Origin: a virus | Reading direction: 5' to 3' (one strand) | IMG/VR virus record: IMGVR_UViG_650716025_000004 | DNA: 64,000 bases | Part shown: in pieces, positions 17,658 to 48,825 of the stretch | How the letters are laid out: each line of letters begins with the position of its first letter | Position numbering within the stretch: position 1 is the stretch's first letter | Made by a program: the position numbers and the translations under genes | Notes under the pieces: model-generated | Told to the model about the DNA's origin: nothing | Databases searched by the model: none | The model's input: only the letters and a program-made list of their open reading frames with translations

Positions 17658-17921
17658 TTACATTTCTTTCAAATCATCTGTGTTGTCAATCATAAAATCT
17701 TCTAAATATGTATCATCATCATAAATTAAATGTTCAGTTGCATCCATTCTTTCTTCTTTAGTAAAGTGATATGCCTGATTTTCTCGTACCTTCTTTTTGT
17801 AATCAAATAAATTAATTACCTTACTCATAATTATCACCCCATTGTTTGTGACTATTTTTTTCCATTTATAATTAACAGATATATTTTTCTTATTAGAACT
17901 TGTCCATTTCTCTATCTTCAT
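17658..17921 (-). CDS. Putative antitoxin with MKIEKWTS leader (cassette 1); second start at 17828
   Basis: SD aaggggtg at 17921, second SD ggggtg+ATG at 17828, acidic C-terminus. Confidence 0.65.
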   Translation of the reverse strand: MKIEKWTSSNKKNISVNYKWKKIVTNNGVIIMSKVINLFDYKKKVRENQAYHFTKEERMDATEHLIYDDDTYLEDFMIDNTDDLKEM

Positions 17922-18125
17922 TTTAACACCCCTTATACCCTATTTCAATTAAAATATGTTATATTAACCTACATTTTACATATAATTATTTTAGTCAATA
18001 TATATACATTAACTAATTTAAAATAAACACACTTATATTTTACCATATTTTGTAATTAGGAGATAAGGGTAATTTACACTTTTAGCTAACAAAAATAACT
18101 ACTTATTTAAAAGTAGTTATTTTAA
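17890..18125 (-). repeat. Shared TA-cassette head module, copy at cassette 1 (most divergent)
   Basis: Retains SD+MKIEKWTS, atattttacca and the terminator repeat. Confidence 0.65.
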
Positions 18126-18190
18126 AATTCTTATATTTATAATATCTATAACTCTAATGGGTTTTTATCATATATGATAACTTAAATATT

Positions 18191-19162
18191 TTATTCTTTG
18201 GGTGTTAACTGTACACTATTTAATCCTTTTATATCCATTATATCATTATCATCTAAATCTATAATAACTTCTTTGACTCCATTATCTCCTAAGATTTCAT
18301 TTACCTTTGTACTTCCGTCAGAACCATGTACCATGAAGTTCCCGCTTCCCTTTGATATACTAGCTTGGTATCTTCCTTTTGTTATATCAGTACCAACTAT
18401 CCAGTATCCAGAATATATATTTGTATTTTGATATGGTATCAAGCTTGATTTTATAGGTGTAAAATTAGCACTCATTCCTTTAAGTTCTATTTTAGAACCT
18501 TCTGGTAATATAGCCTTATACTTTTTTATTTCATAGCCACCAATCTCATTTACTAAAACACTACCATCAGAACCATATACTATGAGATTTCCACTTCCAT
18601 TAAATGTTACATTATAGCTTCCCTTAGCTATATGCTTGCCAACTATATGACTTCCTGCACTTAGCTTTTTACTATTTTCTTTAACGAACTGATCCCATTT
18701 TTTATTTTCTTCAATTTTTTCTGTTTCAGCTCTCTTTTTGTCTTCTAATTCCCACTCCTTAACTTGTATATCTCTTTCCTTGCATAATCGTTCAAAATCA
18801 GATTTTATTGATTGTTTATCTGAACCACCTATATTTTTGTATTTATCTTCTATTTCTGAAAATTTAGTTCTTTGATTTACATCAAAATCTTTATAATGTT
18901 TCTTTAATAATTCTCTATCTTCCATAGTTAAAGTATTCTTGTTTTCTTTTTTTGATTCTGTAGTAATTGTGTTATCTTGATTAGGTGTAGATGACCCAGT
19001 TGGAAGAGCTATCGATATAATTGCTAATATAATAGATCCTATTAGCATCTTTTTATTTTTACTATTATTATCCTTCTTAATAATTCCTTTAATAATTTGA
19101 AATAATGAAAATAAGAACAAACCACATGCTATTATAAATAATATAAGCGTAAAAGTAAGCAT
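18191..19162 (-). CDS. Membrane-anchored protein with duplicated GxxxVGxDIxxGxY domain
   Basis: Two N-terminal TM helices; SAGSHIVGKHIAKGSY and YSGYWIVGTDITKGRY repeats. Confidence 0.7.
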   Translation of the reverse strand: MLTFTLILFIIACGLFLFSLFQIIKGIIKKDNNSKNKKMLIGSIILAIISIALPTGSSTPNQDNTITTESKKENKNTLTMEDRELLKKHYKDFDVNQRTKFSEIEDKYKNIGGSDKQSIKSDFERLCKERDIQVKEWELEDKKRAETEKIEENKKWDQFVKENSKKLSAGSHIVGKHIAKGSYNVTFNGSGNLIVYGSDGSVLVNEIGGYEIKKYKAILPEGSKIELKGMSANFTPIKSSLIPYQNTNIYSGYWIVGTDITKGRYQASISKGSGNFMVHGSDGSTKVNEILGDNGVKEVIIDLDDNDIMDIKGLNSVQLTPKE

Positions 19163-19241
19163 ATTTTTTCCTCCTTAAAATTTTGTCGTAGTTATATATT
19201 ATAATAAGTATAAGTATTAATAAAAAAAATTCCTGAAGATT

Positions 19242-19574
19242 CTAGTTTACAAATTCCGTATTTTTAACTTTCCATTTTTCTAAAGCTATTCCCAACCAAA
19301 AACTATAAATTCCACAAGTAATAATAGTTAATAGAAGCCATTTAATCCAATTTCCAAATAACCCAACAGCTGTTCCCCTAAATATTAACCTCTTACCATT
19401 AATTACTGTATGATTAGTTTTCCATCCAAATACCATACATAATGCCCATGGGTAACATATTCCTACTGTACATACTGTTATTATAAATCCTAATAAAGTC
19501 CATCCTATAAGTTGAAATAATCCACCATCAAAATATGATGCTTCTATTTGTTTATTTGTGTTTAATTCGCTCAT
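19242..19574 (-). CDS. DUF898-like small membrane protein
   Basis: SYFDGG...TVGICYPWA...FxGT..GLFG...IT.GIY.FW pattern. Confidence 0.65.
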   Translation of the reverse strand: MSELNTNKQIEASYFDGGLFQLIGWTLLGFIITVCTVGICYPWALCMVFGWKTNHTVINGKRLIFRGTAVGLFGNWIKWLLLTIITCGIYSFWLGIALEKWKVKNTEFVN

Positions 19575-19821
19575 ATTTTCACCTCCTTACATGGGATATT
19601 GTAACATAATAATACATAATTGTGTATTTTATTCAATATTTAGAATTATTATACTAGTGCAATATATTATAAACTAAACAATTACTGAAAACTAAATTGA
19701 TTCTTATTATTATCATTTATAATCAGCCAAATGAACTCTAGTTGGTTAATTATTTAATTATAGATAACAAAAAGAACTACCTCATTCTAAAGTAGTTCTT
19801 TACATATATTCATATTTAATT

Positions 19822-19938
19822 TTACTCTTCGGTATCTTTAGTATATGTACTTTCACTTCTAGTTCTTTTCCCATATCTATATTCACCATAACAAACCCCC
19901 TCTACCTTATCTCCAACCCTTGCTATTGCTTTACCCAT
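19822..19938 (-). pseudogene. Chimeric remnant: PAAR-gene 5' copy fused to toxin 3' end
   Basis: MGKAIARVGDKVEGVCYGEY (copy of 16879 start) + ESTYTKDTEE (copy of the 49049 ORF end and its terminator). Confidence 0.75.
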
Positions 19939-20054
19939 AATTAATCTCACCTCTTTTATAAAATTCTATTTTTAAACAAATAAAAAACTCTTATAACAAT
20001 TGTTAATTTATAATAATTTAAAATAAAAAAAGAAACTTCTCTAATAAAGTTTCT

Positions 20055-20684
20055 TTAATTAGTAATTTTCTTACTATTTTCATTATAACTTAGTTCAATT
20101 CTATAATTTTCTTTAACATTTATAAAAACCCACTCTGTAATAAAGTCTTCATTATTAAGCAGCTCATCACCAGAATAATTATATAATATGAAATTACTTA
20201 ACACAATATCATAACTATTCTCACCAATTTTCTCAAATCGTCTTAATTTACCTAAATATATTAGTTGTTCTGTACTTAAAAATACTTTAATCCACATACC
20301 AGACTCAAAATCTACAATCTCTGACATTATATCAGTTTTTAAAGATCTACTAATTTTTATTTTTTTAAGAGCCTTACTACTTAATTCACTTTGAATAAAA
20401 ATAGAACATATGTATGATATTACTATAGAAAAAATAAGTGTCAAAATAATGCTTTTGGGAGATGAAACATCTATAACTTTTTTAAATAAGCTTGATATTA
20501 AATATTCAAAATTTATTATTATATAACTAATAACTATACATTTTAATATTAAATTTTTATCTTCTTCCTTTTTTTTATTTACTATAAAATCTTTTATACT
20601 TATAAAAACATAACCTGGTAATATATAAATAATTAATATTGGCAGTATACTAATAAAGTCCTTAATTTTTAAAAAATCAACCAT
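20055..20684 (-). CDS. DUF6338-like membrane protein
   Basis: ILPGYV N-terminal TM helices, soluble C-terminal domain; TAATG coupling to the upstream gene. Confidence 0.55.
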   Translation of the reverse strand: MVDFLKIKDFISILPILIIYILPGYVFISIKDFIVNKKKEEDKNLILKCIVISYIIINFEYLISSLFKKVIDVSSPKSIILTLIFSIVISYICSIFIQSELSSKALKKIKISRSLKTDIMSEIVDFESGMWIKVFLSTEQLIYLGKLRRFEKIGENSYDIVLSNFILYNYSGDELLNNEDFITEWVFINVKENYRIELSYNENSKKITN

Positions 20685-21007
20685 TACTTTTGTCTCGGTG
20701 GTTTCCTAGGAGCAGATGTCAATGTAGGAGGTACACTTTGGCTACCTCTTTCATTAAAATAATCACGATTACTATTATGGGAAATTTCAATATTCCTATC
20801 ATCGCCATTTTGTTTTATATTTGATTTATCATGCAACATTTTTATCACCTCTTCATTATTTATTTTCGACGTATTTTCCTTTTTTCCTCCTAAAACTGAT
20901 TTTTTATTTTGGGAAACTATACATATAATAAAAATAATTATAAAAAAAGTCATCCATGGATGTTGCAAACACCATTCTTTCATATTTAACCTCCAACATT
21001 TATTCAA
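20684..21007 (-). CDS. Small single-TM protein
   Basis: One hydrophobic helix; start may be the later MKEWC. Confidence 0.5.
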   Translation of the reverse strand: MNKCWRLNMKEWCLQHPWMTFFIIIFIICIVSQNKKSVLGGKKENTSKINNEEVIKMLHDKSNIKQNGDDRNIEISHNSNRDYFNERGSQSVPPTLTSAPRKPPRQK

Positions 21008-21212
21008 TATTAATAGGATATACTCATAAGTAATAAAACATTCTTATTCAACCAATTAATCACAAAACTCTTCTATTATTTTAATTTTTTATATTTGAAT
21101 ATAATGATAATATATTTTGATATTAGTCTTTTTTATTCCTGATTACGTGTAATCACTAATCATATTTGTATACATAACAAAAATAACTACTTAATCAAAA
21201 GTAGTTATTTTT

Positions 21213-21695
21213 TTAAGCATGATTAATATTATTGTTTTCCTTCTGATTATCATGAACACATTTATCTATAAATTCAAGATAAAGTTTTCGATCTTCTTTT
21301 GGAAATAGACTATTAACTATTATCCTTACAATACCTACTATCTCTGCAAATATACCTGTTATAAATAATCTTATTGTCCATTCATCATATTTGAATGTTC
21401 CTTTCCCAATATTCCAAACTATTAATATTGTTGAAGCAACTAGCGCTATTAATATAACTGATAAAATTATACTTAAAGTTATTTTTAGTCTTGAATTTGT
21501 TTTTTGTTCATTTGGAAACGAACTTGCTATAAAATTTAATAACATGTCTACACCATTGGATTTTACTCTGTCTGCTTGTCCAATTACATTTAAGCTTCTA
21601 CGATTGCTATTGTTAATGTTTAGTTGGTCAAATAGATTATCATTTTCTTCGATTTCCTTAATATCTATGGTTTCCAAATCTTTTATTCTAGTCAT
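21213..21695 (-). CDS. Two-TM membrane protein coupled to the IrrE peptidase gene
   Basis: Two hydrophobic segments; ATGA overlap with the peptidase stop. Confidence 0.7.
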   Translation of the reverse strand: MTRIKDLETIDIKEIEENDNLFDQLNINNSNRRSLNVIGQADRVKSNGVDMLLNFIASSFPNEQKTNSRLKITLSIILSVILIALVASTILIVWNIGKGTFKYDEWTIRLFITGIFAEIVGIVRIIVNSLFPKEDRKLYLEFIDKCVHDNQKENNNINHA

Positions 21696-22213
21696 GATTT
21701 AATTAACTCCAAGTTTTTTAATCTAGTATACATTGCAGGTTTTGAAACGTTAAAAATATTAGCTAATATAGATATTTTTGTATCTTCAGTCATTCCTATA
21801 GAAGTTGCCTTTTTATATCTATTTCTAATTTCCTTTTCATCCATCAAAATGCATCCAGCAAACTCATCTGCTTCCTTTTCTTCTTTTGCTAAATTATGAT
21901 TATCATCTCTAAATAATAAATCTACCATCTTAGGATTTTTGTTTAAATGCTCTAGAAAATAATGTCCCAATTCATGTGCTATAGTAAATTTCTTTCGTTC
22001 ATTAGTATCTTGAGCATTTACATATATATCTATATCACCATCATTATGACTTATAGCTCCAGAAACTTTTTCTCCATTTGCATTTAAATTATCCACCTCG
22101 TATACATTTATGCTTAATTCATTTGCTATGTCTATAGGATTTACAGAAGGACCTATTATAGCATACCTTTCTTTAATTTCATTAACTATCTTGTGTACTT
22201 TAATCTTATCCAT
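21692..22213 (-). CDS. ImmA/IrrE-family Zn metallopeptidase
   Basis: RKKFTIAHELGHYFLEH (HExxH), EKEADEFAGCILM; start at 22213 with SD gaaggag (track start 22342 lacks an SD). Confidence 0.85.
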   Translation of the reverse strand: MDKIKVHKIVNEIKERYAIIGPSVNPIDIANELSINVYEVDNLNANGEKVSGAISHNDGDIDIYVNAQDTNERKKFTIAHELGHYFLEHLNKNPKMVDLLFRDDNHNLAKEEKEADEFAGCILMDEKEIRNRYKKATSIGMTEDTKISILANIFNVSKPAMYTRLKNLELIKS

Positions 22214-22479
22214 ATTAATTTCTCCTTCATTAATAGCTTGTTTAAAAGATAAATTTCCCCAAATATACAGCCTTCTAAAAGAAGTTACTTGTATAATAAC
22301 ATGGTATTTTTTTATAATTAAGGAAAAATAACTACATACCAAAACTTATTTTTCATATATCTATTACCTTCTACTAGTTATCTTATTTTCCTTCTTTTTT
22401 TTCAAAATTTGTGGATAACTTTTTATAAATTAACAATTTTTTCTTTAATCTGATGATTATAAAATTACTTTTATAAATA

Positions 22480-23220: not shown

Positions 23221-23269
23221 ATTTACCCTCCTAAAGTTTTTGTATTAATTTATATATTTTAATTATTTA

Positions 23270-23981: not shown

Positions 23982-24082
23982 ATCCTTTAGTCTACTGCCT
24001 ATTTTTACGCATAACAAAAAGAACTACCTTACTATGAAATAGTTCTTTATATATATTCATATTTAATTATTAATCTGACACT

Positions 24083-24319: not shown

Positions 24320-24916
24320 TTAGCTTTCTTTTGCGATTGGTTGTAAATAATTATCTTTTAATATATTAACTAAATCATTGTCTATTATGTCAAATATTAA
24401 TGATAATAATTCTTCATTTTTAGATATTCCTTTTATCATTTTTACTTTTTCCTTAATATTAATATCAATATACTCTAATATATTGTTGATTTCTTGTTTC
24501 ATTTCTTTATTATGTTCATCGTTAAAATATTTTTGTAATTCATAAGTCAAAGCAATTTTATAATCCAGTTTTTTTTCGTCTTGTTCATCAATATGAGCGT
24601 TTATTTTCTTTGAATTTATCTCTATGGCATCTATTTTATTTCCATCAACTGAAATAATCATATCTAAATTTACATATGAATCATGCTTTAAAAATGAAGA
24701 ATATTTGCTCACTTCTAATTTTAAGTAATTTTCAGGTATTTTGTTTGACTTCTTTAAATTTTCTAATGATGTTATAGGTGCTATTAATAAAGTTCTATAT
24801 GGAGTTTCTCTTGAGTGAAGTACAACCGCCATATGTTCTCCAAACAATACCTTGGTTTTATTTTTAGTTTTTGTGGGAAAGCTATAGTAAACTATTTGTC
24901 CTTTTTTAAATCTCAT
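24320..24916 (-). CDS. PemK/MazF-like toxin (cassette 2)
   Basis: KKGQIVYYSFP...GEHMAVVL...LLIAPITS...SYVNLDMIISVD. Confidence 0.8.
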   Translation of the reverse strand: MRFKKGQIVYYSFPTKTKNKTKVLFGEHMAVVLHSRETPYRTLLIAPITSLENLKKSNKIPENYLKLEVSKYSSFLKHDSYVNLDMIISVDGNKIDAIEINSKKINAHIDEQDEKKLDYKIALTYELQKYFNDEHNKEMKQEINNILEYIDINIKEKVKMIKGISKNEELLSLIFDIIDNDLVNILKDNYLQPIAKES

Positions 24917-24941: not shown

Positions 24942-25247
24942 TTATTTTTGATTTTTACATCTTTTAAGATATTCTTTCAATGTTGCATTATTGATTTGTT
25001 CTACTACATTTTCAAAAAACATTCTTCCTTCTTCATATTCCTCATTAGTAAGCATAGGTTCTTTTATTTTTGCTTGAAGAAATGAATCTGAACGTTTATT
25101 CTTCTCTCTTATCATCATTAATGCATTCATATGTAACCCTCCTAATGAACATTTGTCATTGGAATCACCATTATAGGTATATTTCAATTTATTTTTTATT
25201 CTATAAACTTTCCCTTTAGTATAACCTGTCCAACGCTGTATCTTCAT
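24942..25247 (-). CDS. Putative antitoxin with MKIQRWTG leader (cassette 2); second start at 25130
   Basis: SD aaggggtg+ATG at 25247; SD aggaggg+ATG at 25130. Confidence 0.65.
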   Translation of the reverse strand: MKIQRWTGYTKGKVYRIKNKLKYTYNGDSNDKCSLGGLHMNALMMIREKNKRSDSFLQAKIKEPMLTNEEYEEGRMFFENVVEQINNATLKEYLKRCKNQK

Positions 25248-25460
25248 ATTAACACCCCTTGCCCAACTTTTCAATAAGATTTTGGTAAAATATATGATAT
25301 TGTGTTATATTTTCCTATTTAAATACAACTTACTAAGATTCTAGATCACATTTGTAAATTATTTACATATTTACATATTACCATAAATTGATTGGAGGTC
25401 ATAATGTTATTTTTACGTATAACAAAAATAACTACTTAATTAAAAGTAGTTATTTCCTTT
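25225..25460 (-). repeat. Shared TA-cassette head module, copy at cassette 2
   Basis: Terminator, atggtaa(a)at, tgtaaattatttaca, SD and MKIQRWT; alignable by eye to the other copies. Confidence 0.85.
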
Positions 25461-27221: not shown

Positions 27222-27620
27222 TTATAAATTGTCAATTATTATCTTAAACTCTACATCTAATTTTTCTATAAACTCCATAAGCAAATTAAATGCTTCTGGC
27301 TTAATTTGACCAATTACCATATAGTCAAGTTTATCTTTATTAAAATAATATAATTGTTCTGCTTTTATATACCCATCCTTACCATTGTCAGGATCAGTAA
27401 CTGTGTCATTGTGTGTTATAGGAAAATTTCCTGCGTATTGTAATTTCTTTTCTTGTTGCTTTTTATTTTTAAAAGATGACATTACATTACAAATAATATT
27501 ATAATCTAAACCCTGTATTTTACCCGATTCATCACTTAAAACAACAAAAGAATGTTGATCTAACTTTTTTTCGTTATCCACATAATTTTTTATTAATATA
27601 ATATCCCCAACTTTACACAT
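27222..27620 (-). CDS. PemK/MazF-like toxin (cassette 3)
   Basis: KVGDIILI...HSFVVLSD...CNVMSS...GYIKAEQLYYF. Confidence 0.65.
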   Translation of the reverse strand: MCKVGDIILIKNYVDNEKKLDQHSFVVLSDESGKIQGLDYNIICNVMSSFKNKKQQEKKLQYAGNFPITHNDTVTDPDNGKDGYIKAEQLYYFNKDKLDYMVIGQIKPEAFNLLMEFIEKLDVEFKIIIDNL

Positions 27621-27638: not shown

Positions 27639-27875
27639 TTATTTATCGTTATAATCTAACAAAACCTTTTTCTTTCCTGATAAAACTTCTTCACTCCAAT
27701 TAATGGGTGCAACATCTTTTAAAGAATCTTGTGTAGAAACTATAGTAGTTTTTTTATTTTGTAAGATATTTAAATTAAATGATTTCAATTTATTCATATT
27801 AACACCCCCATTACTTTTCAACTTGTTCCGATTTATTTTTATATATTTGCAACTTGTCCAACGTTGTATTTTCAT
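27639..27875 (-). CDS. Putative antitoxin with MKIQRWTS leader (cassette 3); second start at 27797
   Basis: SD aaggag+ATG at 27875; SD gggggtg+ATG at 27797. Confidence 0.65.
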   Translation of the reverse strand: MKIQRWTSCKYIKINRNKLKSNGGVNMNKLKSFNLNILQNKKTTIVSTQDSLKDVAPINWSEEVLSGKKKVLLDYNDK

Positions 27876-28085
27876 ATTACCACTCCTTGTCCCGTTTTTC
27901 AATAAAATTTTGGTAAATTATATGATATTATGTTATATTTTTCTATTTGAATACAATTTACTAAGATTCTAGATTGCATTTGTATATTATTTACTTATTC
28001 ATATTTTACCATAAATTGGATATTGGTCACAATGTTATTTTTACGTATAATAAAAATAACTACTTAATCAAAAGTAGTCATTTTT
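27850..28085 (-). repeat. Shared TA-cassette head module, copy at cassette 3
   Basis: Near-identical to 48800-49040. Confidence 0.88.
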
Positions 28086-28087
28086 GT

Positions 28088-28897
28088 CTAACTTGTTAAA
28101 TTGGGGTAATCTAGAAAGTCTAGTAAACTTTCATTTTCTAGTTTATCATTTTCTAACTCACTAATAAACTCCATAGCATCTTTAATCTTAAACAATTTAT
28201 ATGATGATTTTCTTAAAATTTCGTATATTGTCTTAAATTTATCATCTTCTATATCTGTATCATATATAAATATAGTTTTATAATTTTTTTCTTCCATTTC
28301 AGCTGCTGTAAATGCCCAAGCTTTTACGGAAGTTATTATCTTAGATAAATTTTTATTAGCAAATGTAAATATTTTAAATGCATATTCATTAATAAAATAA
28401 TCATAATTAACCGGTTCCGAATATTCACCTTTAGTTTTACCTTTATAAAATTTAATATTATTACTTTTCATAAAATGTTTAAAATAATTTACTTGCTGAG
28501 ATGTATTTGGTCTATCTTTCTTATTATAATCATATCTTAAAAACATTTTTTTTGTTTTTTCTACGAAAGACTTCATGTTATCTGTGTTACTTGTATATAT
28601 TTTAGAAAATCTTAGTTCATTAATAAATGTATCAGTATAATTATAAATATTAAATGATTTTTCCCTTGACCAAAATGTATTCTGTATTTCACATTGCATT
28701 CCTTTTAATAATAGTTTTAGAATATCAATATTTACCTCATCATCAAAACTCTGAACTCTTTGCCATTTAGTCGTAATTTCAAAATTTCTTTCATCTGTTT
28801 TTTCATTATAAAAAAGTATAGCTACATTTATAGATTCATCCGTAATAAAAGATGGATGATAACTTAGTACAGAAAAATATATTTTCAAACTACTCAC
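28088..28897 (-). CDS. DUF3037-like partner of the HipA-like kinase
   Basis: FSVLSYHPS...ESINVAILF N-terminus typical of DUF3037; overlaps the kinase stop. Confidence 0.65.
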   Translation of the reverse strand: MSSLKIYFSVLSYHPSFITDESINVAILFYNEKTDERNFEITTKWQRVQSFDDEVNIDILKLLLKGMQCEIQNTFWSREKSFNIYNYTDTFINELRFSKIYTSNTDNMKSFVEKTKKMFLRYDYNKKDRPNTSQQVNYFKHFMKSNNIKFYKGKTKGEYSEPVNYDYFINEYAFKIFTFANKNLSKIITSVKAWAFTAAEMEEKNYKTIFIYDTDIEDDKFKTIYEILRKSSYKLFKIKDAMEFISELENDKLENESLLDFLDYPNLTS

Positions 28898-29786
28898 CTC
28901 CTGACATAACTATATTCTTAGCTATTTGTTCTATAATATTATTCATATTTTGTAATCTATATAATATATATTCCTTTAACTTTTTCAAATCATTTTTATC
29001 TGTTATCCATACTTGTGGTAAATCTTTTATTATATCTTCTAGTATATCATTATTTAATAAACTTTTGAATATTTCATATGCACTTATTAATTTTTCTTTA
29101 GTTATGATTTGTGCATCTATAAACGGTTTATATATACAATATGTTTCTGTAATTAAAATCTTGTTATCTTTATAATCTTCTTGTTGCATTAATAAATCTA
29201 ATTCTCTTTCATTCCACCTATTTTGTAGATTAAATACATGTGAATGATCTATTATGTACATTTTAGATTCATTCTTGGAGAAATTTAATAATAAATTTCC
29301 GTTGTGTCTATCCTCATTATAAATAAGATAATCAAATAATAAAATTTTATTCATATCTTCTTTATTTTTAATTGCTTTTACTAATTCAGTGTCACATATA
29401 AACTTAGTAACCTTAGATAATCTCTTACTATAAAATCCTATTCCACAAATATCATCATCATACTGTAATTGCGACTTTAACTCTTCACTTAGTTCTGTAT
29501 TTTTTGTTATATTACAAATTCCACCATCAGGAATAGGTAGTTTTAATAGCATTGCTATCTTAAGACATATATATTCATTTATAAGTATCTTATATCCCCA
29601 TCTATTTTTAAATGTTTTAATTATAACATTTTCACCATCTATTATACCTTCAACTGGTTCCGTCGCTCCATATGGTAATTTGCGTAATATCTTATTTACA
29701 TCTCGAATCATATATAATTCTCCCTTATGGAATAATTTATTACAAAAATTTATATCTAATACTCTATTAAAGTTAAATAATTTCAT
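28890..29786 (-). CDS. HipA-like (HipA_2) Ser/Thr kinase
   Basis: GATEP, LINEY, FDYLIYNEDRHNGNLL, YIIDHSHVF. Confidence 0.8.
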   Translation of the reverse strand: MKLFNFNRVLDINFCNKLFHKGELYMIRDVNKILRKLPYGATEPVEGIIDGENVIIKTFKNRWGYKILINEYICLKIAMLLKLPIPDGGICNITKNTELSEELKSQLQYDDDICGIGFYSKRLSKVTKFICDTELVKAIKNKEDMNKILLFDYLIYNEDRHNGNLLLNFSKNESKMYIIDHSHVFNLQNRWNERELDLLMQQEDYKDNKILITETYCIYKPFIDAQIITKEKLISAYEIFKSLLNNDILEDIIKDLPQVWITDKNDLKKLKEYILYRLQNMNNIIEQIAKNIVMSGGE

Positions 29787-35706: not shown

Positions 35707-36126
35707 CTATTCTTCGTAATATGAATTATCTTCGAGTATTGATGTTAAATCCTCAAAAATAAACTTATCTATTTGAATATTTCTCAATGTACAAGAAGCA
35801 ATACCTAATGTTAATTGTATAGCTTGTTCATTGGTTAAATCTAATTCAATGCCATTTATTCCAAGAAATACCTTAGCTACTGTTAGTCCAACTCTTTTAT
35901 TGCCATCTCTAAAACAATGTCCTTTAATGAAAAAATACATTAACATAGACGCCTTATTAAATATTGTTGGATACTTTTCGTAACCAAATGATGGATATTG
36001 TTGTGACAATATACTTTGTACTTTCCCATCAGTATTATCAAAATGTCCTAATTCCCCGCCAAATTCTTCAATAGTCTGTTGATGTATCAAAAAAATATCT
36101 TCTTTATCTAACGTTTCAATTATCAT
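35707..36126 (-). CDS. Doc/Fic-family toxin (cassette 4)
   Basis: HCFRDGNKR Doc motif. Confidence 0.9.
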   Translation of the reverse strand: MIIETLDKEDIFLIHQQTIEEFGGELGHFDNTDGKVQSILSQQYPSFGYEKYPTIFNKASMLMYFFIKGHCFRDGNKRVGLTVAKVFLGINGIELDLTNEQAIQLTLGIASCTLRNIQIDKFIFEDLTSILEDNSYYEE

Positions 36127-36375: not shown

Positions 36376-36585
36376 ATTACCACTCCTTGTCCCTATTTTC
36401 AATAAATTTATGGTAAAATATATAATATTGTGTTATATTTTTTACTTAGATATAAATAAGTGATATTCCGGAATGTATTTGTAAATTATTTACATAATTA
36501 TATTTTACCATAAATTGGTTATAAGTAGTAATGATATTATTTTATATAACAAAAACTCCTAATATCATTAAATACTAGGAGTTTT
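36350..36585 (-). repeat. Shared TA-cassette head module, copy at cassette 4
   Basis: Same block order. Confidence 0.88.
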
Positions 36586-37081
36586 ATTCTAAAACTGCAT
36601 ACATTCCTTTACACCCATCTAGTTCCCAAGCTGGTAAAATATTTACATCCTCTGGAAATTCTAAAAATTTAAACTTATCTTTATAAAAGCTAATAGCACT
36701 AGGTACTGAAAATAACATAACATATTTGATTCCTACTTCTTTCTTTAACTCATATATAGATTCTAAAATATAGTTAAGTATTGCTGATCCATACCCTTGT
36801 CTTTCATATCTATAATCTACAGCTAACCTTGAGATCTCTATAGCGGGATAAACTTTATTCATATTGTCAACACGAAATTGCATAGCATTGCATTTTATTG
36901 TATAGTAACCTATTACATCATCTTCACCCACTAAAAGAAAGGTGTTTCCTTCACCCATTCTATCACACGTTATAGCCTCACATTTTAAAAAACTCTCCAT
37001 AGGCTTGTCTTCTATTTTACATTGAAAATCGCCAATGGGTAAAAAATGTTTATCATCTATTCTTTCTATTGTTAATTCCAT
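36584..37081 (-). CDS. GNAT acetyltransferase toxin (cassette 5)
   Basis: PAIEISRLAVDYRYERQGYG acetyl-CoA motif; AISFY..F.F. Confidence 0.85.
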   Translation of the reverse strand: MELTIERIDDKHFLPIGDFQCKIEDKPMESFLKCEAITCDRMGEGNTFLLVGEDDVIGYYTIKCNAMQFRVDNMNKVYPAIEISRLAVDYRYERQGYGSAILNYILESIYELKKEVGIKYVMLFSVPSAISFYKDKFKFLEFPEDVNILPAWELDGCKGMYAVLE

Positions 37082-37083: not shown

Positions 37084-37350
37084 TTATTTAACCCTTCTAA
37101 TTATGATTCCCTTCATTTGCTTTTTACGTTCCTCAATAGATTCTTTTGTAATAGTAGGTTTTTTTAATGCTTCTAACATTTGTATTGCTGATTCACCCTT
37201 AATTACTGGAATTGTTGCCATTGATACTGCCATTATTCTCATCCTCCCACTCTCTTTTATATGTCTATATTGATTAATGTGATATACTCTTTTTAACTTG
37301 TTCAAATCTACTTTTATAGATTTTGAACTTATCCACTTCTTTATATTCAT
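37084..37350 (-). CDS. Putative antitoxin with MNIKKWISS leader (cassette 5); second start at 37233
   Basis: SD ggggagtgag at 37350; SD gggagg+ATG at 37233. Confidence 0.65.
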   Translation of the reverse strand: MNIKKWISSKSIKVDLNKLKRVYHINQYRHIKESGRMRIMAVSMATIPVIKGESAIQMLEALKKPTITKESIEERKKQMKGIIIRRVK

Positions 37351-37550
37351 TTTACCATCTCACTCCCCTATTTACAATATTTTAGTAAAATTTTATCCAT
37401 AATATTCTTTATATTATCCATAATTTTATAAAATTTGGTTAAAATATATTATTTACATAATTATATTTTACCATAAATTGGTTATAAGTAGTAATGATAT
37501 TATTTTATATAACAAAAACTCCTAATATGGTTGAATACTAGGAGTTTTGT
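37325..37550 (-). repeat. Shared TA-cassette head module, copy at cassette 5 (divergent)
   Basis: 37450-37550 nearly identical to 36487-36585. Confidence 0.75.
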
Positions 37551-37927
37551 TTGTCTGAAGCAATTCTTTGTTCTGTATATTGTTCTAACACATAATCGTG
37601 GAATAACTTTTCAACTGTATCTAAGTCACTGGGATGCAAATCCCCTTTCTTTCTCTCGAACATATCTATAGGTAAATACATACTTTTAGAAGCTCTAGCT
37701 GTGGATTTCATTTTCAGTTTAGCCTCTTTCCAATAAAATATTCTATAATCAAATTTATCTCTAGGTTCATGTTTAGTCACTTTAATGCTTAACACACCTA
37801 TCTCTTCATCATTTTCTTGTAGCACAATAACAGGACGTGGTTTTAATACAGGTTCATCTTCAAATGGAAATAGGGCATACCAAACCTCTCCTCTTTTCGG
37901 ATGTTTATTTTGTTTCGCTTCTGTCAT
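37538..37927 (-). CDS. PemK/MazF toxin (cassette 6)
   Basis: KRGEVWYALFPFED...KPRPVIVL...VLSIKVT; likely start MTEAK overlapping the antitoxin end. Confidence 0.85.
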   Translation of the reverse strand: MTEAKQNKHPKRGEVWYALFPFEDEPVLKPRPVIVLQENDEEIGVLSIKVTKHEPRDKFDYRIFYWKEAKLKMKSTARASKSMYLPIDMFERKKGDLHPSDLDTVEKLFHDYVLEQYTEQRIASDKQNS

Positions 37928-38132
37928 ATATATCGTCCCATTCATCTTCATCATTCCATTCATCGTCTTGAGAAATAATAGGTCTTCCCTTTGCATCTAT
38001 TTTTATATTTCGCATTAGCATTTCTTTCAATGCAAATTTATTAATTCTTAAGCAATTTTCCATTTTAGCTCCCCCATTTCTTATATAAAATGCCCTTTTA
38101 ATCTGTGAACTTGTCCACTTCTTTATTTTCAT
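37905..38132 (-). CDS. Putative antitoxin with MKIKKWTS leader (cassette 6); second start at 38063
   Basis: Acidic W-containing tail DDEWNDEDEWDD; two SD+ATG. Confidence 0.7.
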   Translation of the reverse strand: MKIKKWTSSQIKRAFYIRNGGAKMENCLRINKFALKEMLMRNIKIDAKGRPIISQDDEWNDEDEWDDIYDRSETK

Positions 38133-38340
38133 ATTACCACTCCTTATCCAACTTTTCAATGAAATTTTGGTAAAATATATGATATTATGTTATATTTTTG
38201 TATTTGTGCATCTAATAATTTTATATTTTTTATGCAAATTATTTACATGTTTATATTTTACCATATATTGGTTATAAGTAGTAATGATATTATTTCATAT
38301 AACAAAAACCCCTAATATCGTTGAATACTAGGAGTTTAAA
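38108..38340 (-). repeat. Shared TA-cassette head module, copy at cassette 6
   Basis: Same block order. Confidence 0.85.
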
Positions 38341-38683
38341 AATGTTGTTTGACAATTCTATTGATAACTTTATCAAAATCCTCATCTGTCATAACACCAA
38401 TCTTTTTATACAATTTATTAGATGGAATCTTGTACAATTTATTGACTTTTACAAATGACATTTTATCAAGCCCAGCTTCTTTCCACTTAACTATAGGTTC
38501 TTTGAACTTATCAAAGTGTCTTGGTGGGTCTTTAGGTTTTGCACTAGTTATTTCAGAAATAGTGTACGAAGTTTCTTTATCAGTTACATTTTTATTAATT
38601 ATTATGATAGGTCTGTTTTTTGCTTTCTCAATTTTATCTTCATAATAAATACGAACTATATAAATATCTTTAATATCTGCCAT
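38336..38683 (-). CDS. PemK/MazF toxin (cassette 7)
   Basis: DIYIVRIYYED...KNRPIIII...EITS...AGLDKMSFVKVNK. Confidence 0.85.
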   Translation of the reverse strand: MADIKDIYIVRIYYEDKIEKAKNRPIIIINKNVTDKETSYTISEITSAKPKDPPRHFDKFKEPIVKWKEAGLDKMSFVKVNKLYKIPSNKLYKKIGVMTDEDFDKVINRIVKQHF

Positions 38684-38918: not shown

Positions 38919-39070
38919 ATTAACACCCCTACCTTATTTTTCAATAAAAATTCTGGTAAAATATATGGTACTATGATATATTTTTCTACTTAAATATAAT
39001 TCACCAATATTTTAGATTGTAATTGTAAATTATTTATACAATTATATTTTACCATAAATTGGTTAGGGTT
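38895..39070 (-). repeat. Shared TA-cassette head module, copy at cassette 7 (no terminator part)
   Basis: Similarity ends after ttttaccataaattggtt. Confidence 0.8.
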
Positions 39071-44854: not shown

Positions 44855-46192
44855 ACCACTTTCTCTTGTTTTCTCTGAAACTATCGCACCCATTGTTGCC
44901 AATTCTTGAAGTGAAATTTTTCCTTCTTTAGCCATTGCACCAGATTTCTGAATTATAGCTCCTACTTCTTGGGCACTTGTACCAGACACGGCTCCTACTT
45001 TTACCAATACATCCGAAAGTTCTTGTGCATCCACTTGTAATGAGTTAATACCTGCCGTCATTAATTCAGTTGATTGGTTTATGTCTCCATTAATAACTTT
45101 ATTAAACTTACTGAAAATCTGCATTCTTTTGTTTGTTTCATCTATAGCTAACCCTTGCCTTGTTAGTTCAACTGTTAATTTAGACATATCTGTTAATGTA
45201 GTAGCTAAATTTACACTCATTTTAGAGTATGACTGCATTAATTTATCTGTTTGCTGTTGTGTCATTCCAGTTATTTCTCGTACTTGAACCATTTGTTGAT
45301 CTAACGATATTAACACTTGTACAGCCTCATAACACTTTTGAACTCCTTTATACATTGACCCCATGGTTACAGCCATAGAAACTGCTTGTTTAATGCTATT
45401 ACCCATTCTTTCAAATGCACTAGCTATATGCTTGTTATTTACTTTTATGGCTTCACTATTTTGGTATATCTTTTGAGTATTTCTGTCTATGGTTACTCCA
45501 TATTCTTTTATCTGATTATTAGTACTTTGAGTTGCTACAGTCATTTTTATCTGTGAATTTCCCGCACTATCTAAAGAACGCTTATAATTTTTAATTGAAG
45601 CATCTGCTCCATATATAGATTGAATTTGTGCTTTTATATAAGTATCATCACTAAACATTCCACTAGAAGCAAATCCTCTTTCTTGTCCTAGTTTTTGTAT
45701 TCTCTTCTGTTCAGCTTGTGCTATTCTTTCTTCAGATTGTATAGCCTTTTGTTCCTTCTCTTTTAATGCTCTAAGCCAAATTTGTTCATACTGTTGGCCA
45801 TTTAATCTATTCATTCTACCTTGTTGCTGAGCTATAGTTTCGTTACTACCAGTTATTATTTGTTCTATTTTCTTTTGCGTATCAGTTATGGTTCTTAATC
45901 TTTCTCGTTCTTGATTATAAATTATTTTTCTAGATGAATCATTAGCCTGTGCAATTCTATTAGATACTTTATCTATTTCTTCAAGGCCATTTGTATTTAA
46001 CTTAATTCCGTTAGATTGTAATTGTCTTTGTAAATTTTTATAATCATTTATAATCTTATCAAAATTAACATTTTCTAATTTAATGTTTAATTTACAATCT
46101 TTTTGTAAGTCATTAATTATTTTGTTCAAATTTTGTTTTGCTTCTTCAAAATTAAACTCTACGCCTAATTGAATACCATATGTTTCAGCCAT
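44855..46192 (-). CDS. Tape measure protein, exon 1
   Basis: TMP core domain (ISLDQQMVQVREITG...); ends KTRESG. Confidence 0.88.
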
Positions 46193-46260
46193 ACTGTCTA
46201 ATCAACTCCTTTTTGTGCAAAATAAAAGAACCCAATGTACATTGAGTCCTTTGGCACGTA

Positions 46261-46728
46261 TTATATAATTTTTATCCCTCTACTTTGCATATATCCTATA
46301 AAGGCGTTTATTGCACTTTTAGTATTTCTTAATTCTATTTCGGTATTTTCAATGAAGTCTTTTGTATAAGGTGCAAATATGTTCTTGTCTTCATTTAACC
46401 ATTGTGCAATATAATTCATTCCTACTTGTTCACCTTTTTGAATTCCTAATTTACTGCTACCCCACCATGATTCATGAGTAAGCTCAGGGTTAAAATAAAC
46501 TTGTGCTATGTACATTCCATTTTCTTCTTTTACATCGCCTATTTCAATGGACTTCAATAACTCATAGGTTCTTTGATAACTATCGCTAGATGGATGTGAA
46601 TATACTTTATCTAATACTTGTTTTTTTAATTCATCCTTAATAATTCTACTAACGTCATCTTTTAACGCCTTTATAGATTGTTTTTTAATCTCTTTTTCTA
46701 ATTGAGATATATCAGCAAAATAAGGCAT
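46261..46728 (-). CDS. HK97 gp10-like tail completion protein
   Basis: YQRTYELLKSI motif; immediately upstream of the tape measure gene. Confidence 0.5.
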   Translation of the reverse strand: MPYFADISQLEKEIKKQSIKALKDDVSRIIKDELKKQVLDKVYSHPSSDSYQRTYELLKSIEIGDVKEENGMYIAQVYFNPELTHESWWGSSKLGIQKGEQVGMNYIAQWLNEDKNIFAPYTKDFIENTEIELRNTKSAINAFIGYMQSRGIKII

Positions 46729-47288
46729 TACTCATCACCTAATTCTAATTCTCTTATTTGTTTTTCTAGCTCCTCTTTCTTTTTTAATTTCAACTGTCTT
46801 TCTTTTTCCTTTTTTAATTCTTCTAATACTCGTTCAGTGTCTACATCTTCGTTGTTTTCTTTTTTTACTTGTTCTATTACTTCTCTTTGTTCTTCTATAT
46901 CCATATTAACTAAATTATCTAGTCCTTCTTTAGATGTCTTTTCTATTAGCTCAGGTATAATTATATTTAATAATTCTTCCTCTACATTTATTACATCTTC
47001 GCTAGGACTCATTAGTATCTCTACAATCTCAGTCTTTTTAAAATTCTCTAAATTAATATTAGTAAACATATTTAGTATTTCTACCCTATCATCTAAAGTA
47101 TAAGATACTTGCCCTTTTTCTAAAGTTTCTTTATTGTTTTCTAAAAATCTAGTTATAAAATTACAAAAGCTTAACATATTGTATTCATTTAATTCATATA
47201 TCTCTACATTACCTACTTGTTTTAACACCTTTACTTTTACTTTTAACTTTCTTTTACCCATAAAATCTTCTTTGTTCAATCTATTCAT
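46728..47288 (-). CDS. Putative tail assembly chaperone
   Basis: Acidic helical protein upstream of TMP; TAATG coupling. Confidence 0.45.
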   Translation of the reverse strand: MNRLNKEDFMGKRKLKVKVKVLKQVGNVEIYELNEYNMLSFCNFITRFLENNKETLEKGQVSYTLDDRVEILNMFTNINLENFKKTEIVEILMSPSEDVINVEEELLNIIIPELIEKTSKEGLDNLVNMDIEEQREVIEQVKKENNEDVDTERVLEELKKEKERQLKLKKKEELEKQIRELELGDE

Positions 47289-47379
47289 CGTTTTAAAAAT
47301 CCTCCTTGATATTGTATTGTTGTTTTATTTATCATATCTTAATCCCCCTAATCAAGCACATTCTTAATATTTCAATCTT

Positions 47380-47682
47380 TTAAACTAATTCCCATTGACC
47401 AATTTCTAAATAATCTTCAATATCCCAACCCTCATACCAAACTAAATACTTCTTATATGTAACTATTCCTTCTTTAACTCTTAATGTACCTGTATTAAAA
47501 GTATCATCAAATATTTCACCACTATTAATATCATAGACGCTTGCTATTTCATATCCCAAAATCTCATCCTTATATTTTTCTATTATTTCTAAACTATCTG
47601 TATATGTAACTACGTTGTGTAATTTACCCTTCTTATCTTTGTATCTCCCCTCAATTATTAGATAAATTGTTTTTACTTCCAT
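47380..47682 (-). CDS. Hypothetical protein, paralogue of 23270-23572
   Basis: Near-identical 100-aa copy. Confidence 0.75.
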   Translation of the reverse strand: MEVKTIYLIIEGRYKDKKGKLHNVVTYTDSLEIIEKYKDEILGYEIASVYDINSGEIFDDTFNTGTLRVKEGIVTYKKYLVWYEGWDIEDYLEIGQWELV

Positions 47683-47871
47683 AATTAAAACCTCCTATTT
47701 ATTTTTTGGATTTGTTGGTTTCATTTACCTTATGAATATACTATATCACCCATTATATATATTGTCAAATATATATATTATATATTTTATATATTGTTTG
47801 TTATATATATTGAATATATTATATAGAGTTGGTATACTATATAATAAGAAATAGTTATATAGGAGGGTATT

Positions 47872-48066
47872 ATGAAAATTACAATAGATACTGTATTAGA
47901 AGAACAATCAAAAACTCGTTATTGGTTAGCTCAGCAAACAGGTATTACATATCCTAGTATAATGAGAATAGCAAATAATAAATCTACATCTATAACTTTT
48001 GACAACCTTCAAAAAATCTGCATAGCTCTAAATTGCACACCAAACGATATACTCCAAATTGACTAA
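47872..48066 (+). CDS. XRE/Cro-type HTH regulator
   Basis: TRYWLAQQTGITYPSIMRIANN...ICIALNCTPNDIL. Confidence 0.85.
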   Translation: MKITIDTVLEEQSKTRYWLAQQTGITYPSIMRIANNKSTSITFDNLQKICIALNCTPNDILQID

Positions 48067-48215
48067 AACTAATAACTCACCATTATATAATCAATCTATT
48101 TCTCCGCATAACAAAAAGAACTACCTTACTATGAAGTAGTTCTTTACACATATTGGTGTTTAATATTAATATGTATTGTATCTCATCAAACAATTTAAAT
48201 AATATGCATCTAATT

Positions 48216-48575
48216 TTATGAATAAAATTCGTTGATTATTTCAATAATTTCATTTTTAGATGGTATACGATTGTCGTCCTTTTTATAATAAACAGTTAAT
48301 AAAAATATTGTTTTTTCATTTTGTATTACATAATAGATGATTCTATATCCATTTGATTGCCCAACACGAGTATCTGTATTTTTAGCTCTTGCTTTAAATG
48401 CATCTTCACCATTTGGTAATTTAATATCATTTATAGTATCTCCCACTAATACCCCTTTTTCTAGTTGTTCTACTACAATATCGACATCATCATCAATATG
48501 TTTGTACTTACGTTTATTAATGTAAAATTTTAAATCACTTATAAATTTGTCTGTAGGAATAACTTCATAACACAT
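48216..48575 (-). CDS. RelE/HigB-like toxin (cassette 8)
   Basis: YEVIPTDKFISDLK...GYRIIYY...IFLLTVYYK. Confidence 0.85.
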   Translation of the reverse strand: MCYEVIPTDKFISDLKFYINKRKYKHIDDDVDIVVEQLEKGVLVGDTINDIKLPNGEDAFKARAKNTDTRVGQSNGYRIIYYVIQNEKTIFLLTVYYKKDDNRIPSKNEIIEIINEFYS

Positions 48576-48588
48576 ATCCTAACCCCTA

Positions 48589-48825
48589 TCAACCTTGTTT
48601 TTCTTTTTTTAGCTCCTCCCGTACCTCTCTCCAACTTTTTTTAGATGAATTACCCTTTCGTATTTCTTGCATTTGTTGCAAGCTTGTCCTAAGAGACTCA
48701 GCAACAGTACAGTATCTTTCAACTACTTCCATACCTAATCCCTCTTTCTCTCTATTTTCTTTATATCTAATCTTTTTTAACTTATACACTTTCTTATTGG
48801 AACTTGTCCAACGCTGTATCTTCAT
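48589..48825 (-). CDS. Putative antitoxin with MKIQRWTS leader (cassette 8); second start at 48732
   Basis: SD aaggag+ATG at 48825; SD gaggg+ATG at 48732. Confidence 0.7.
   Translation of the reverse strand: MKIQRWTSSNKKVYKLKKIRYKENREKEGLGMEVVERYCTVAESLRTSLQQMQEIRKGNSSKKSWREVREELKKEKQG

Follow-up and report, generated by a model that had tools for sequence, protein, structure and literature searches.

A repeated upstream region and in-frame leader peptide shared by unrelated putative antitoxin genes of a c-st-like Clostridium phage

Eight cassettes on the minus strand

The window, by which I mean the whole stretch of 64,000 nucleotides that was analysed, is part of a c-st-like phage, a large plasmid-prophage of Clostridium botulinum group III. 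Its minus strand carries eight cassettes, each consisting of a 5' module, a long antitoxin frame and a toxin or presumed toxin gene. The long frame begins at ATG1, which is preceded by a ribosome-binding site (SD1), and contains a second in-frame start, ATG2, with a site of its own (SD2); the codons before ATG2 are here called the leader, and the remainder the antitoxin body.

16938-17636, minus: cassette 1, presumed toxin gene, 232 aa; no HMM match to any family
17658-17921, minus: cassette 1, long antitoxin frame, 87 aa; 31-codon leader, ATG1 17921, ATG2 17828, offset 93 nt; 56-aa body
17922-18060, minus: cassette 1, 5' module; P1 (TATGGTAAAAT) 126 nt before ATG1, AT-rich UTR, SD1
within 17922-18060, minus: cassette 1, P2-like element TTGAAA-17-TAAAAT, overlapping ATG1
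24320-24916, minus: cassette 2, PemK/MazF-family toxin gene; Pfam 27.7 bits, cut-off 23.1
24942-25247, minus: cassette 2, long antitoxin frame, 101 aa; 39-codon leader, ATG1 25247, ATG2 25130, offset 117 nt
25248-25391, minus: cassette 2, 5' module; P1, palindrome TGTAAATAATTTACA, UTR, P2-like element, SD1
27222-27620, minus: cassette 3, PemK-like toxin gene; Pfam 18.6 bits, below cut-off
27639-27875, minus: cassette 3, long antitoxin frame, 78 aa; 26-codon leader, ATG1 27875, ATG2 27797, offset 78 nt
27876-28019, minus: cassette 3, 5' module, from repeat comparison
35707-36126, minus: cassette 4, Fic/Doc toxin gene; Pfam 61 bits
36136-36375, minus: cassette 4, long antitoxin frame, 79 aa; 38-codon leader, ATG1 36375, ATG2 36261, offset 114 nt
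36376-36518, minus: cassette 4, 5' module, from repeat comparison
36584-37081, minus: cassette 5, GNAT acetyltransferase toxin gene, from Pfam
37084-37350, minus: cassette 5, long antitoxin frame, 88 aa; 39-codon leader, ATG1 37350, ATG2 37233, offset 117 nt
37351-37481, minus: cassette 5, 5' module; -35 of the P2-like element is TTGTAA
37538-37996, minus: cassette 6, PemK/MazF toxin gene; Pfam 24.9 bits, listed frame overlaps the antitoxin
37905-38132, minus: cassette 6, long antitoxin frame, 75 aa; 23-codon leader, ATG1 38132, ATG2 38063, offset 69 nt
38133-38271, minus: cassette 6, 5' module, from repeat comparison
38336-38683, minus: cassette 7, PemK/MazF toxin gene; Pfam 38 bits
38694-38918, minus: cassette 7, long antitoxin frame, 74 aa; 25-codon leader, ATG1 38918, ATG2 38843, offset 75 nt
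38919-39062, minus: cassette 7, 5' module, from repeat comparison
48216-48575, minus: cassette 8, ParE/RelE-superfamily toxin gene; Pfam 18.2 bits, below cut-off 23
48589-48825, minus: cassette 8, long antitoxin frame, 78 aa; 31-codon leader, ATG1 48825, ATG2 48732, offset 93 nt
48826-48969, minus: cassette 8, 5' module, from repeat comparison

The layout is that of type II toxin-antitoxin loci, with a small gene tightly upstream of a recognised toxin domain, the exception being the matchless 16938-17636. A preliminary description had listed five PemK/MazF toxins, one Doc, one GNAT and one RelE. The Doc and GNAT partners are borne out by Pfam (Fic/Doc at 35707, GNAT at 36584), and four PemK toxins are found by HMM, the one at 27222 below the cut-off (its c-st orthologue CST144 is annotated as PemK/MazF). 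The fifth is PemK-like by eye only, from an RPVL...VIPI pattern in the 232-aa product, and the RelE partner is a match to the ParE/RelE superfamily, but one below the cut-off; the orthologue of this toxin in L071 gives the same weak ParE match. The toxin of cassette 6 probably starts later than listed, because its Pfam match begins at residue 34.

The eight antitoxin bodies, of 41-62 aa, are mutually unrelated as had been stated (no BLASTP pair below E=0.1) and lack a DNA-binding Pfam domain; such a domain is found neither in the eight long frames (E<=1) nor in the leaders (E<=10). Each cassette is flanked by promoter-like and terminator-like sites, and four of them sit between the tape measure gene and the genes of the distal tail, where the gap in c-st holds other DNA. 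In having their own promoter-like and terminator-like sites, between conserved phage genes, and in being absent at the c-st site, the cassettes resemble phage morons, self-contained promoter-gene-terminator units between phage structural genes.

The leader frame and the inner start

All eight ATG1s follow a G-rich SD and encode M-K/N-I-x-K/R-W-T/I-S/G, confirming the common motif reported earlier, and in all eight the frame runs into ATG2, which is located 5-10 nt 3' of a second G-rich SD. The phage's own genome contains exactly eight leader copies, every one inside the window, but relatives contribute at least eight further cassette types, giving 16 distinct junctions in several phage lineages, and the two in-frame starts, each with an SD at that spacing, are present in 16/16. 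The leaders measure 23-40 codons and have the form MKIxRWTSS ... [VI]Y[KR][LI]K ... G. Whether the motif always precedes antitoxins had been raised as a check, and all leader frames do lie upstream of PemK, Doc, GNAT, ParE/RelE or HicA-like partner genes or form a fusion with a Phd-like antitoxin; the relatives' cassettes give GNAT, ParE and Phd-like Pfam matches.

The retention of frame, which had been put forward as exceeding chance, stands. In the eight window leaders the leader frame has no stop codons, against 35 and 27 in the other two frames, and over the 16 junctions the counts are 0, 72 and 54. In none of 20,000 composition-preserving shuffles did all eight stay open at once, and the product of the per-copy open-frame probabilities is about 6e-10. 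Stops or frameshifts in homologous leaders, sought as counter-evidence, did not appear: all 16 lengths are multiples of three, an in-frame 3-nt indel separates two leader versions borne by one antitoxin body, and one relative carries an in-frame insertion of 48 nt immediately 3' of ATG1. These patterns support selection on the upstream frame to stay open and in frame with the antitoxin. A translationally coupled leader cistron is ruled out, as no stop is found near ATG2 in 16/16 and the frame enters the antitoxin.

The antitoxin's own SD, mostly GGGGG, is embedded in the leader frame, where the G-rich stretch encodes a glycine conserved in every leader. This glycine codon is GGG in 13 of 16 cassettes, compared with 7.7% of glycine codons in the long genes of the phage; the codon usage shows SD2 to be maintained at the nucleotide level, and because so rare a codon is kept, the short start is probably functional. 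Since the ATG1 frame runs into each antitoxin, every antitoxin is probably made both as a tagged long form and as a native short form.

The earlier argument for conservation at the protein level survives in part. Position 5 is always R or K, through five codons (CGT, AAG, AAA, AGA, AGG); serine 9 is written with both TCN and AGT; and in the second motif, [VI]Y[KR][LI]K, the residue type is constant while the codons vary (TAT/TAC for Y, AAG/AAA/AGA for K/R, seven codons for the aliphatic residue). Such codon usage suggests that the protein itself is under selection. However, ATA is present in 18/18 leader sequences and ACA in 16/18, which, with the rare CGT, reflects nucleotide-level constraint or recent exchange between copies and weakens the argument within the window, where much of the identity among the eight copies is DNA-repeat homology and mosaic exchange.

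The leaders carry a net charge of +4 to +9, and the make-up of what had been called a basic linker is about what translated A-rich sequence gives, on a rough estimate from base composition. No leader has a Pfam match (E<=10) or a match to a solved structure, and no RHH, HTH or AbrB match lies in the shared leader. The leader may resemble an 'IKRWGNS'-like MazE-type sequence, but as a SpoVT/AbrB (MazE-type) N-terminal domain it has no PF04014 match, and hhalign gives a probability of 0.1% for 16 leaders against clostridial AbrB/SpoVT N-domains, the one set compared. The AF2 model of the cassette 5 long form is not compact (pTM 0.29), with a long helix predicted at residues 10-33.

The upstream module and its exchange

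The likeness between copies does not start at the ATG, as the preliminary description implied, but reaches 130-200 nt 5' of ATG1 into non-coding DNA; the whole repeat spans about 130-230 nt, with the leader at its 3' end. The elements come in the order: the intrinsic terminator of the preceding unit, P1, an AT-rich UTR, a P2-like element, a strong SD and ATG1. P1, an extended -10 promoter-like site 101-138 nt upstream of ATG1, is found in 16/17 modules, and so is P2, a promoter-like TTGnAn-17-TGnTAAnAT whose -10 overlaps ATG1. Of the window's 57 further TAnnATG start contexts, none pairs the TG with a -35 of at least 4/6; however, TGnTAAnATG is a common ribosome-site context in this phage too, so the -10 reading of P2 depends mainly on TTGnAn at fixed spacing. 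Both are consensus matches in very AT-rich DNA and are best called promoter-like, but owing to the overlap of P2 with the start codon some transcripts may lack ATG1. P2 is retained in lineages where the rest of the upstream DNA has diverged. The palindrome, which is module-specific and lies at P1 in the AT-rich untranslated stretch of window modules, and the GGACAAG direct repeats are not kept in diverged lineages that retain the leader peptide. A known structured RNA leader (riboswitch, T-box, attenuator) was considered and rejected: the window has no Rfam match, and the RNAalifold consensus is -3 kcal/mol, with no compensatory pairs.

Antitoxin bodies and leaders are combined differently in related phages. 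In relatives, the body of cassette 1 is preceded by another leader version, which has one codon more; the cassette 3 orthologue in c-st and the D phage has another leader version of equal length, and the 5' module of cassette 3 has, 3' of the D phage's C3 exoenzyme gene, a copy with 75% identity; the body orthologous to cassette 8 in another phage lineage has a 24-codon leader. Where two phages were compared, homology breaks off at two points, some 49 nt inside the leader and at the terminator. The exchange of cassettes looks like homologous recombination within the promoter/leader and terminator repeats. The cassette 7 body has a leaderless homologue of 51 aa on Bacillus subtilis plasmids, which begins at the ATG2 position and has an in-frame stop upstream, and for the body of cassette 5 (the GNAT antitoxin) other genomes encode both leader-bearing and leaderless homologues, the latter including P0006 and P0011. 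Because leaderless homologues of these two bodies exist, the leader looks grafted. The suggestion of a universal tag grafted onto antitoxins is therefore upheld as to grafting, but what looks grafted is the end of a DNA module and not an isolated tag.

What the module may do

The explanation I lean towards, if only slightly, is that of a portable control module at the 5' end, fused in frame with many type II antitoxins and providing double initiation. Many different antitoxin genes in c-st-like and related large clostridial phages would have acquired it. P1 transcripts, or read-through from upstream, would include ATG1 and give the N-terminally extended as well as the native antitoxin; P2 transcripts would begin 3' of ATG1 and give the native form only. 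With two starts and a choice between P1 and P2, the module would be a plug-in expression unit, whose double initiation would ensure surplus antitoxin whichever toxin-antitoxin pair is captured. The toxin itself would police the reading frame, as less antitoxin would be made, and toxin set free, if the leader acquired a stop or frameshift. As the leader keeps its residues while their codons change, I think that the peptide also gives the long form some shared property, either a stability handle or a nucleic-acid-binding handle. Against the explanation, beside the AT-rich setting of P1 and P2, the common TGnTAAnATG context, the invariant codons and the leader's want of a Pfam or structure match and of a compact model, stand two further observations: double initiation alone would tolerate a leader that stops near ATG2, which none of the 16 does, and the lysine-rich composition is near the default of A-rich sequence.

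Residues kept through codon changes where the flanking DNA has diverged, on antitoxins that serve at least five families of toxin, could also mean that the leader is a specific shared tag, the main idea of the preliminary description: a degron, a protease site or a binding site for one phage or host factor, by which one signal could destabilise or control all antitoxins; the leaderless homologues show that it is dispensable for the antitoxin fold. However, no degron, domain or structure that is known resembles the leader, the analysis found no partner protein, and the kept inner start would yield an untagged pool escaping control, which makes this reading rather unlikely. Alternatively, the leader could be a short arm for binding nucleic acid, through which the long antitoxin, either free or complexed with its toxin, would contact the shared module DNA or the mRNA that encodes it. 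A single repeat transmits the peptide together with its control region, the bodies have no DNA-binding domain of their own, and the positive charge, the palindrome at P1 and the modelled helix would all fit; if so, arm and operator would travel as one DNA unit and bring autoregulation to minimal antitoxins. I hold this unlikely, as diverged lineages without the palindrome and GGACAAG repeats retain the peptide, the charge may simply follow from A-rich sequence, and neither known DNA- or RNA-binding motifs nor the clostridial AbrB/SpoVT domains are matched.

It is also doubtful that only the long protein matters, the inner SD and ATG being a vestige of a captured operon or merely a glycine hinge: gene callers and databases do record long forms (e.g. 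CST141) and the glycine is universal, but the preference for GGG and the SD-like spacing of ATG2 in 16/16 indicate selection for a ribosome site, and the conserved P2-like element would give transcripts without ATG1. That the leader is untranslated, as the coding-like end of a repeated promoter/5'-UTR element, is very improbable in spite of the similar identity upstream, the -10 over ATG1 and the codons invariant at the nucleotide level, given the stop counts over 16 junctions, the in-frame lengths and indels and the strong, correctly spaced SD before ATG1.

I found no published description, in the literature searched, of an in-frame leader shared by unrelated antitoxins. The lambda S gene (S107 antiholin, S105 holin) likewise has two nearby in-frame starts, each with its own ribosome site, and a longer product with a positively charged N-terminal extension. 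That extension comprises two residues on one gene, whereas here a conserved leader of 23-40 residues, with its own promoter region, is common to at least 16 unrelated genes, and promoter choice possibly decides which start is available. In 'bicistronic design' leaders, where a short upstream frame with strong initiation contains the SD of the cargo, the strong first start, the second SD in coding sequence and the portable, cargo-independent initiation are the same, but those leaders stop at or beside the cargo start, and here the frame never stops and a fusion results. As in modular type II antitoxins, a small gene lies directly 5' of PemK, Doc, GNAT or ParE/RelE toxin genes and has an N-terminal part common across toxin families and a specific C-terminal part; however, the leader does not constitute a folded DNA-binding domain, between it and the body lie a full ribosome site and start codon, and homologues of the same bodies elsewhere lack it. 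As with the toxin-antitoxin cassettes of chromosomal integrons, the units stand in head-to-tail arrays with repeated boundaries, and their content differs between related phages; no attC-like site or integron integrase was noticed, however, and the boundaries are promoter/leader on one side and ordinary terminator hairpins on the other. Panacea (DUF4065), a hyperpromiscuous antitoxin domain (PMC8832971), similarly occurs with many toxin families that are unrelated to one another, frequently in phages, but itself neutralises, whereas here a short leader precedes unrelated neutralising bodies; none of the eight long frames has a DUF4065 Pfam match. In-frame N-terminal proteoforms in bacteria have been surveyed (PMC11005335).

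Beyond the portable control module, a bolder and less probable view is that the leader is a transferable master-control tag, recognised by one phage or host factor, or added and removed by a P1-versus-P2 switch. If true, it would let the plasmid-prophage silence or release at least eight different toxins together, for instance so that they stay quiet while it grows lytically itself and are armed while it is carried, and a newly captured toxin-antitoxin pair would join the shared control merely by recombining behind the module.

Leader frames in the window

The window is one contig region within a 3.2-Mb genome, has a GC content of about 26% and carries almost all of its genes on the minus strand. 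Its large genes encode phage tail proteins (tape measure, SPbeta YomG- and YomH-like proteins, DUF6558), and over the tape measure region the window shares 86% identity with Clostridium phage c-st of C. botulinum group III, which is the type C neurotoxin-converting phage. The preliminary description placed eight unrelated putative antitoxins behind a shared leader, an MKIxRWTS-type frame that runs from an upstream start (ATG1) into the antitoxin's own start (ATG2), and all eight upstream and all eight second ATGs were found where it had put them. The offsets between them (93, 117, 78, 114, 117, 69, 75 and 93 nt) are each divisible by three, in agreement with the common frame claimed, and a G-rich Shine-Dalgarno sequence (SD1 and SD2, respectively), as also described, is present at every one of both sets of starts. 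The proposed avoidance of stops is evident as well, with no stop in the reading frame of the eight leader stretches against 35 and 27 in the other two frames; after linker shuffling, the chance of staying open is 3-20% per copy, with a product of ~6e-10 for the eight window copies. The genome holds exactly eight leader copies, those in the window. No pairwise similarity was observed among the eight antitoxin bodies (the parts from ATG2), which were thus rightly called unrelated. For the partner genes, the description of five PemK/MazF, one Doc, one GNAT and one RelE toxin stands in part: Fic/Doc and GNAT were recovered, three PemK/MazF proteins score above the Pfam cut-off and one below, and the ParE/RelE match is weak, whereas the supposed fifth PemK is a 232-aa protein with no family hit. 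This product is the presumed toxin of cassette 1.

Two other loci in the window carry the following genes.

28088-29786: HipA-like kinase gene (PF20613), then a DUF3037 gene; possibly another toxin-antitoxin or defence pair, lacking the leader module
21692-22342: IrrE/ImmA-type metalloprotease gene (Peptidase_M78) in the accessory region; its product is a conceivable candidate protease for phage regulators or tagged proteins

Relatives, translation and the second start

Further leader frames were collected by pattern scans of viral contigs and by searching exhaustively with a profile of one long form (leader plus antitoxin body), after which the encoding contigs were fetched.

Leader-bearing frames in relatives
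c-st: CST141
L028: new cassette
L065, a 27-kb phage contig: two frames, beside a tape measure gene
L066, L067 and L074, DNA of further relatives: leader-bearing frames
L071-L073, 160-178-kb viral contigs of a separate lineage: two frames

These frames either have GNAT, ParE/RelE or PemK toxins as partners or carry the leader in fusion with a Phd-like antitoxin. L071 had no megablast match among GenBank phages, and only 1-5% of the searched stretch of L065 was matched there, even by the more sensitive blastn. Genome and metagenome collections held no copies of a strict DNA pattern, while a looser one gave only chance matches there and one extra phage lineage in the viral collection; word-based homologue searches with two long forms matched only the query proteins themselves. 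In total, 16 distinct cassette types were obtained, all 16 in frame with no stops in the leader, against 72 and 54 stops out of frame, and all 16 with an internal G-rich Shine-Dalgarno sequence and ATG, though, with few members and some relatedness among them through recombination, this count of 16 junctions somewhat overstates their independence.

The leader is very probably translated, as argued by these frame statistics together with three further observations. Two leader versions, one codon different in length, are found on one and the same antitoxin body. A 48-nt insertion directly after ATG1 (L074:761-810), which holds the inverted repeat ATGACA...TGTCAT, is in frame and free of stops. 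Finally, residues are kept through codon changes: position 5 is always R or K, by way of CGT, AAG, AAA, AGA and AGG, serine 9 is encoded by both TCN and AGT, and in a second motif, [VI]-Y-[KR]-[LI]-K, the codons vary (TAT/TAC, AAG/AAA/AGA and seven at the aliphatic site). The conservation had been described as acting on the protein, which these changes bear out; however, the nucleotides are constrained too, since ATA is used in 18 of 18 sequences and ACA in 16 of 18 (55% and 44%, respectively, in the phage's usual usage), and the rare CGT (9%) is the commonest arginine codon in the leaders. Such constraint fits a stretch that is both coding and within a promoter-proximal element, and exchange between copies contributes as well, as the leader versions are mosaic. 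A slippery heptamer for frameshifting in the A-rich linker was dismissed, the motif being present in only some copies. RNA runs gave nothing on the window stretch beyond two short contigs from a mixed library.

The second start is probably real as well. For the glycine before ATG2, 13 of the 16 cassettes use the codon GGG, compared to 7.7% in the phage's long genes, an excess that points to selection for the ribosome site rather than for the amino acid. Bacillus subtilis plasmids of 136-155 kb encode a 51-aa homologue of the cassette 7 body; this homologue starts at the ATG2 position with its own Shine-Dalgarno sequence and has an in-frame stop upstream, and the body of the GNAT antitoxin has leaderless protein relatives (P0006 and P0011). 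These leaderless homologues indicate that the short form, the body from ATG2 alone, is the ancestral, complete antitoxin, and the leader an addition.

L064:1334-1845 (B. subtilis plasmid NZ_CP061871, with 8 similar plasmids of 136-155 kb): pair of a minimal 51-aa antitoxin and a PemK toxin, the latter 48% identical to the product of window 38336-38683, driven from a predicted TATGGTAAAAT-type extended -10 promoter and without leader; these plasmids may be SPbeta-like plasmid-prophages
L075:5668-6288 (another SPbeta-like phage contig): P0008, more distantly homologous to the body of the GNAT antitoxin, with a different basic N-terminal extension (MRVKRIKTKPKRY..KLKR); neither the tryptophan nor the module is present, and the extension may represent a leader version that has diverged or arisen by convergence

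The putative control module and cassette exchange

By repeat finding and alignment, similarity among the copies reaches 130-200 nt upstream of ATG1 at a level equal to that of the leader, and the leader forms the end of a longer repeat in the DNA, the module. Its parts lie in the following order on the coding strand, 5' to 3', the promoters P1 and P2 being called as consensus matches within AT-rich DNA.

Intrinsic terminator of the preceding gene, of two conserved families
P1, predicted extended -10 promoter CCAATTTATGGTAAAATAT, ~30 nt after that terminator
Palindrome TGTAAATAATTTACA, within the window essentially confined to leader modules
AT-rich sequence of ~100 nt
P2, TTGAAA-17 nt-TGnTAAnAT, whose final two bases are the AT of ATG1
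ATG1

At the 57 other TAnnATG start contexts of the window, a good -35 never goes together with the TG, which argues that P2 is not generic to ribosome sites here. An extended -10-like sequence, TGGTAAAATAT (+ strand; window 36403, 38160 and 38946), lies just upstream of P2 on the opposite strand in most window copies and could produce RNA antisense to the P1 leader region. As general features, a conserved antisense promoter and GGACAAG direct repeats were both rejected, being absent from the diverged lineages. No Rfam family matched in a scan of the whole window, and a consensus fold of six module-plus-leader sequences gave neither meaningful structure nor covariation.

Near-identical intrinsic terminators of two or three families end many accessory cassettes, some without leader module, and look bidirectional (A-run before the hairpin, T-run after).

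Terminator family sites in the window, one group per line
16951, 35702, 36581, 37544, 38334
18118, 21206, 25451, 26656, 28079, 51428
19797, 24044, 48141, 49030, 50457

Compared with a related phage, one cassette is swapped from ~49 nt inside the leader up to the terminator, and the gap between tape measure and distal tail genes holds unrelated DNA in c-st. These patterns indicate that cassettes are exchanged by way of the repeated 5' module and the terminators, which serve as homology arms.

In c-st and the D-1873 phage, the repeat is likewise present, immediately downstream of the gene for the C3 exoenzyme.

L001:3001-5400 (c-st 135970-138360): c-st copy downstream of the C3 exoenzyme gene, split by ISCbt4-a between the P2-like -35 and -10, with leader frame, antitoxin and PemK gene behind it intact
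L002:1545-1788 and window 27800-28090: module copy directly after the C3 exoenzyme gene, in both C and D phages; an old GenBank record labels part of the leader 'terminator'

The mobile 21.5-kb C3 element is reportedly bounded by AAGGAG, the sequence of SD1 in the leader module, and could have originated by recombination between module copies.

Possible functions and significance

Comparison at the sequence level establishes the architecture and its conservation. Transcripts from P1, or read-through transcripts, would include ATG1 and yield both long and short antitoxin, while those from P2 would start within codons 2-4 and give rise to short antitoxin alone. On this reading, the module would be a plug-in double-initiation expression unit that secures an antitoxin excess for any captured pair. 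Losing the long form would lower the antitoxin supply and free the toxin, which I propose as the reason for the total lack of stops.

The codon-level evidence suggests that the leader peptide itself also matters, and it could serve as a stability handle, as an arm for binding nucleic acid or as the target site of a common regulator. Its lysine-rich composition is by itself no evidence, as A-rich sequence would encode nearly the same. An AF2 model of the cassette 5 long form (11-sequence alignment; pLDDT 72.6, pTM 0.29) shows helices and no compact fold, with a long helix at residues 10-33 (moderate confidence). Searches of the long frames against Pfam, PHROGs, NCBIfam and PADLOC were uninformative except for a match of PHROG 28524 (unknown function) to residues 1-35 of cassette 8, a stretch that includes the leader. 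A leader profile had no matches among solved structures at E<=10, and ESM Atlas gave one long form no usable neighbours, its own model having a pLDDT of 0.37. A likeness of the leader to the MazE/ChpBI N-terminus was not supported by the tests run.

Among known designs, those closest to this one are the lambda S dual start, modular type II antitoxins, the Panacea domain, translationally coupled leader cistrons and phage morons. None of these five joins a translated leader and a promoter module, both shared across unrelated antitoxins, with native starts that are still in place. The preliminary description knew of no system of this design, and none was found in the open literature or the group III genome paper.

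Toxin-antitoxin pairs are commonly viewed as autonomous two-gene units. Here, one mobile element has a common promoter region and translated leader in front of many unrelated pairs, with the native antitoxin starts kept. If both starts are used, this would be a natural plug-in system for the expression and co-ordination of captured pairs, and would clearly exemplify, in bacteria, N-terminal proteoforms that probably serve regulation. Recombination that reshuffles accessory genes in these phages probably also takes place at the repeated modules, and the module gives a testable handle on how a plasmid-prophage manages a large toxin arsenal and recruits new toxin-antitoxin pairs.
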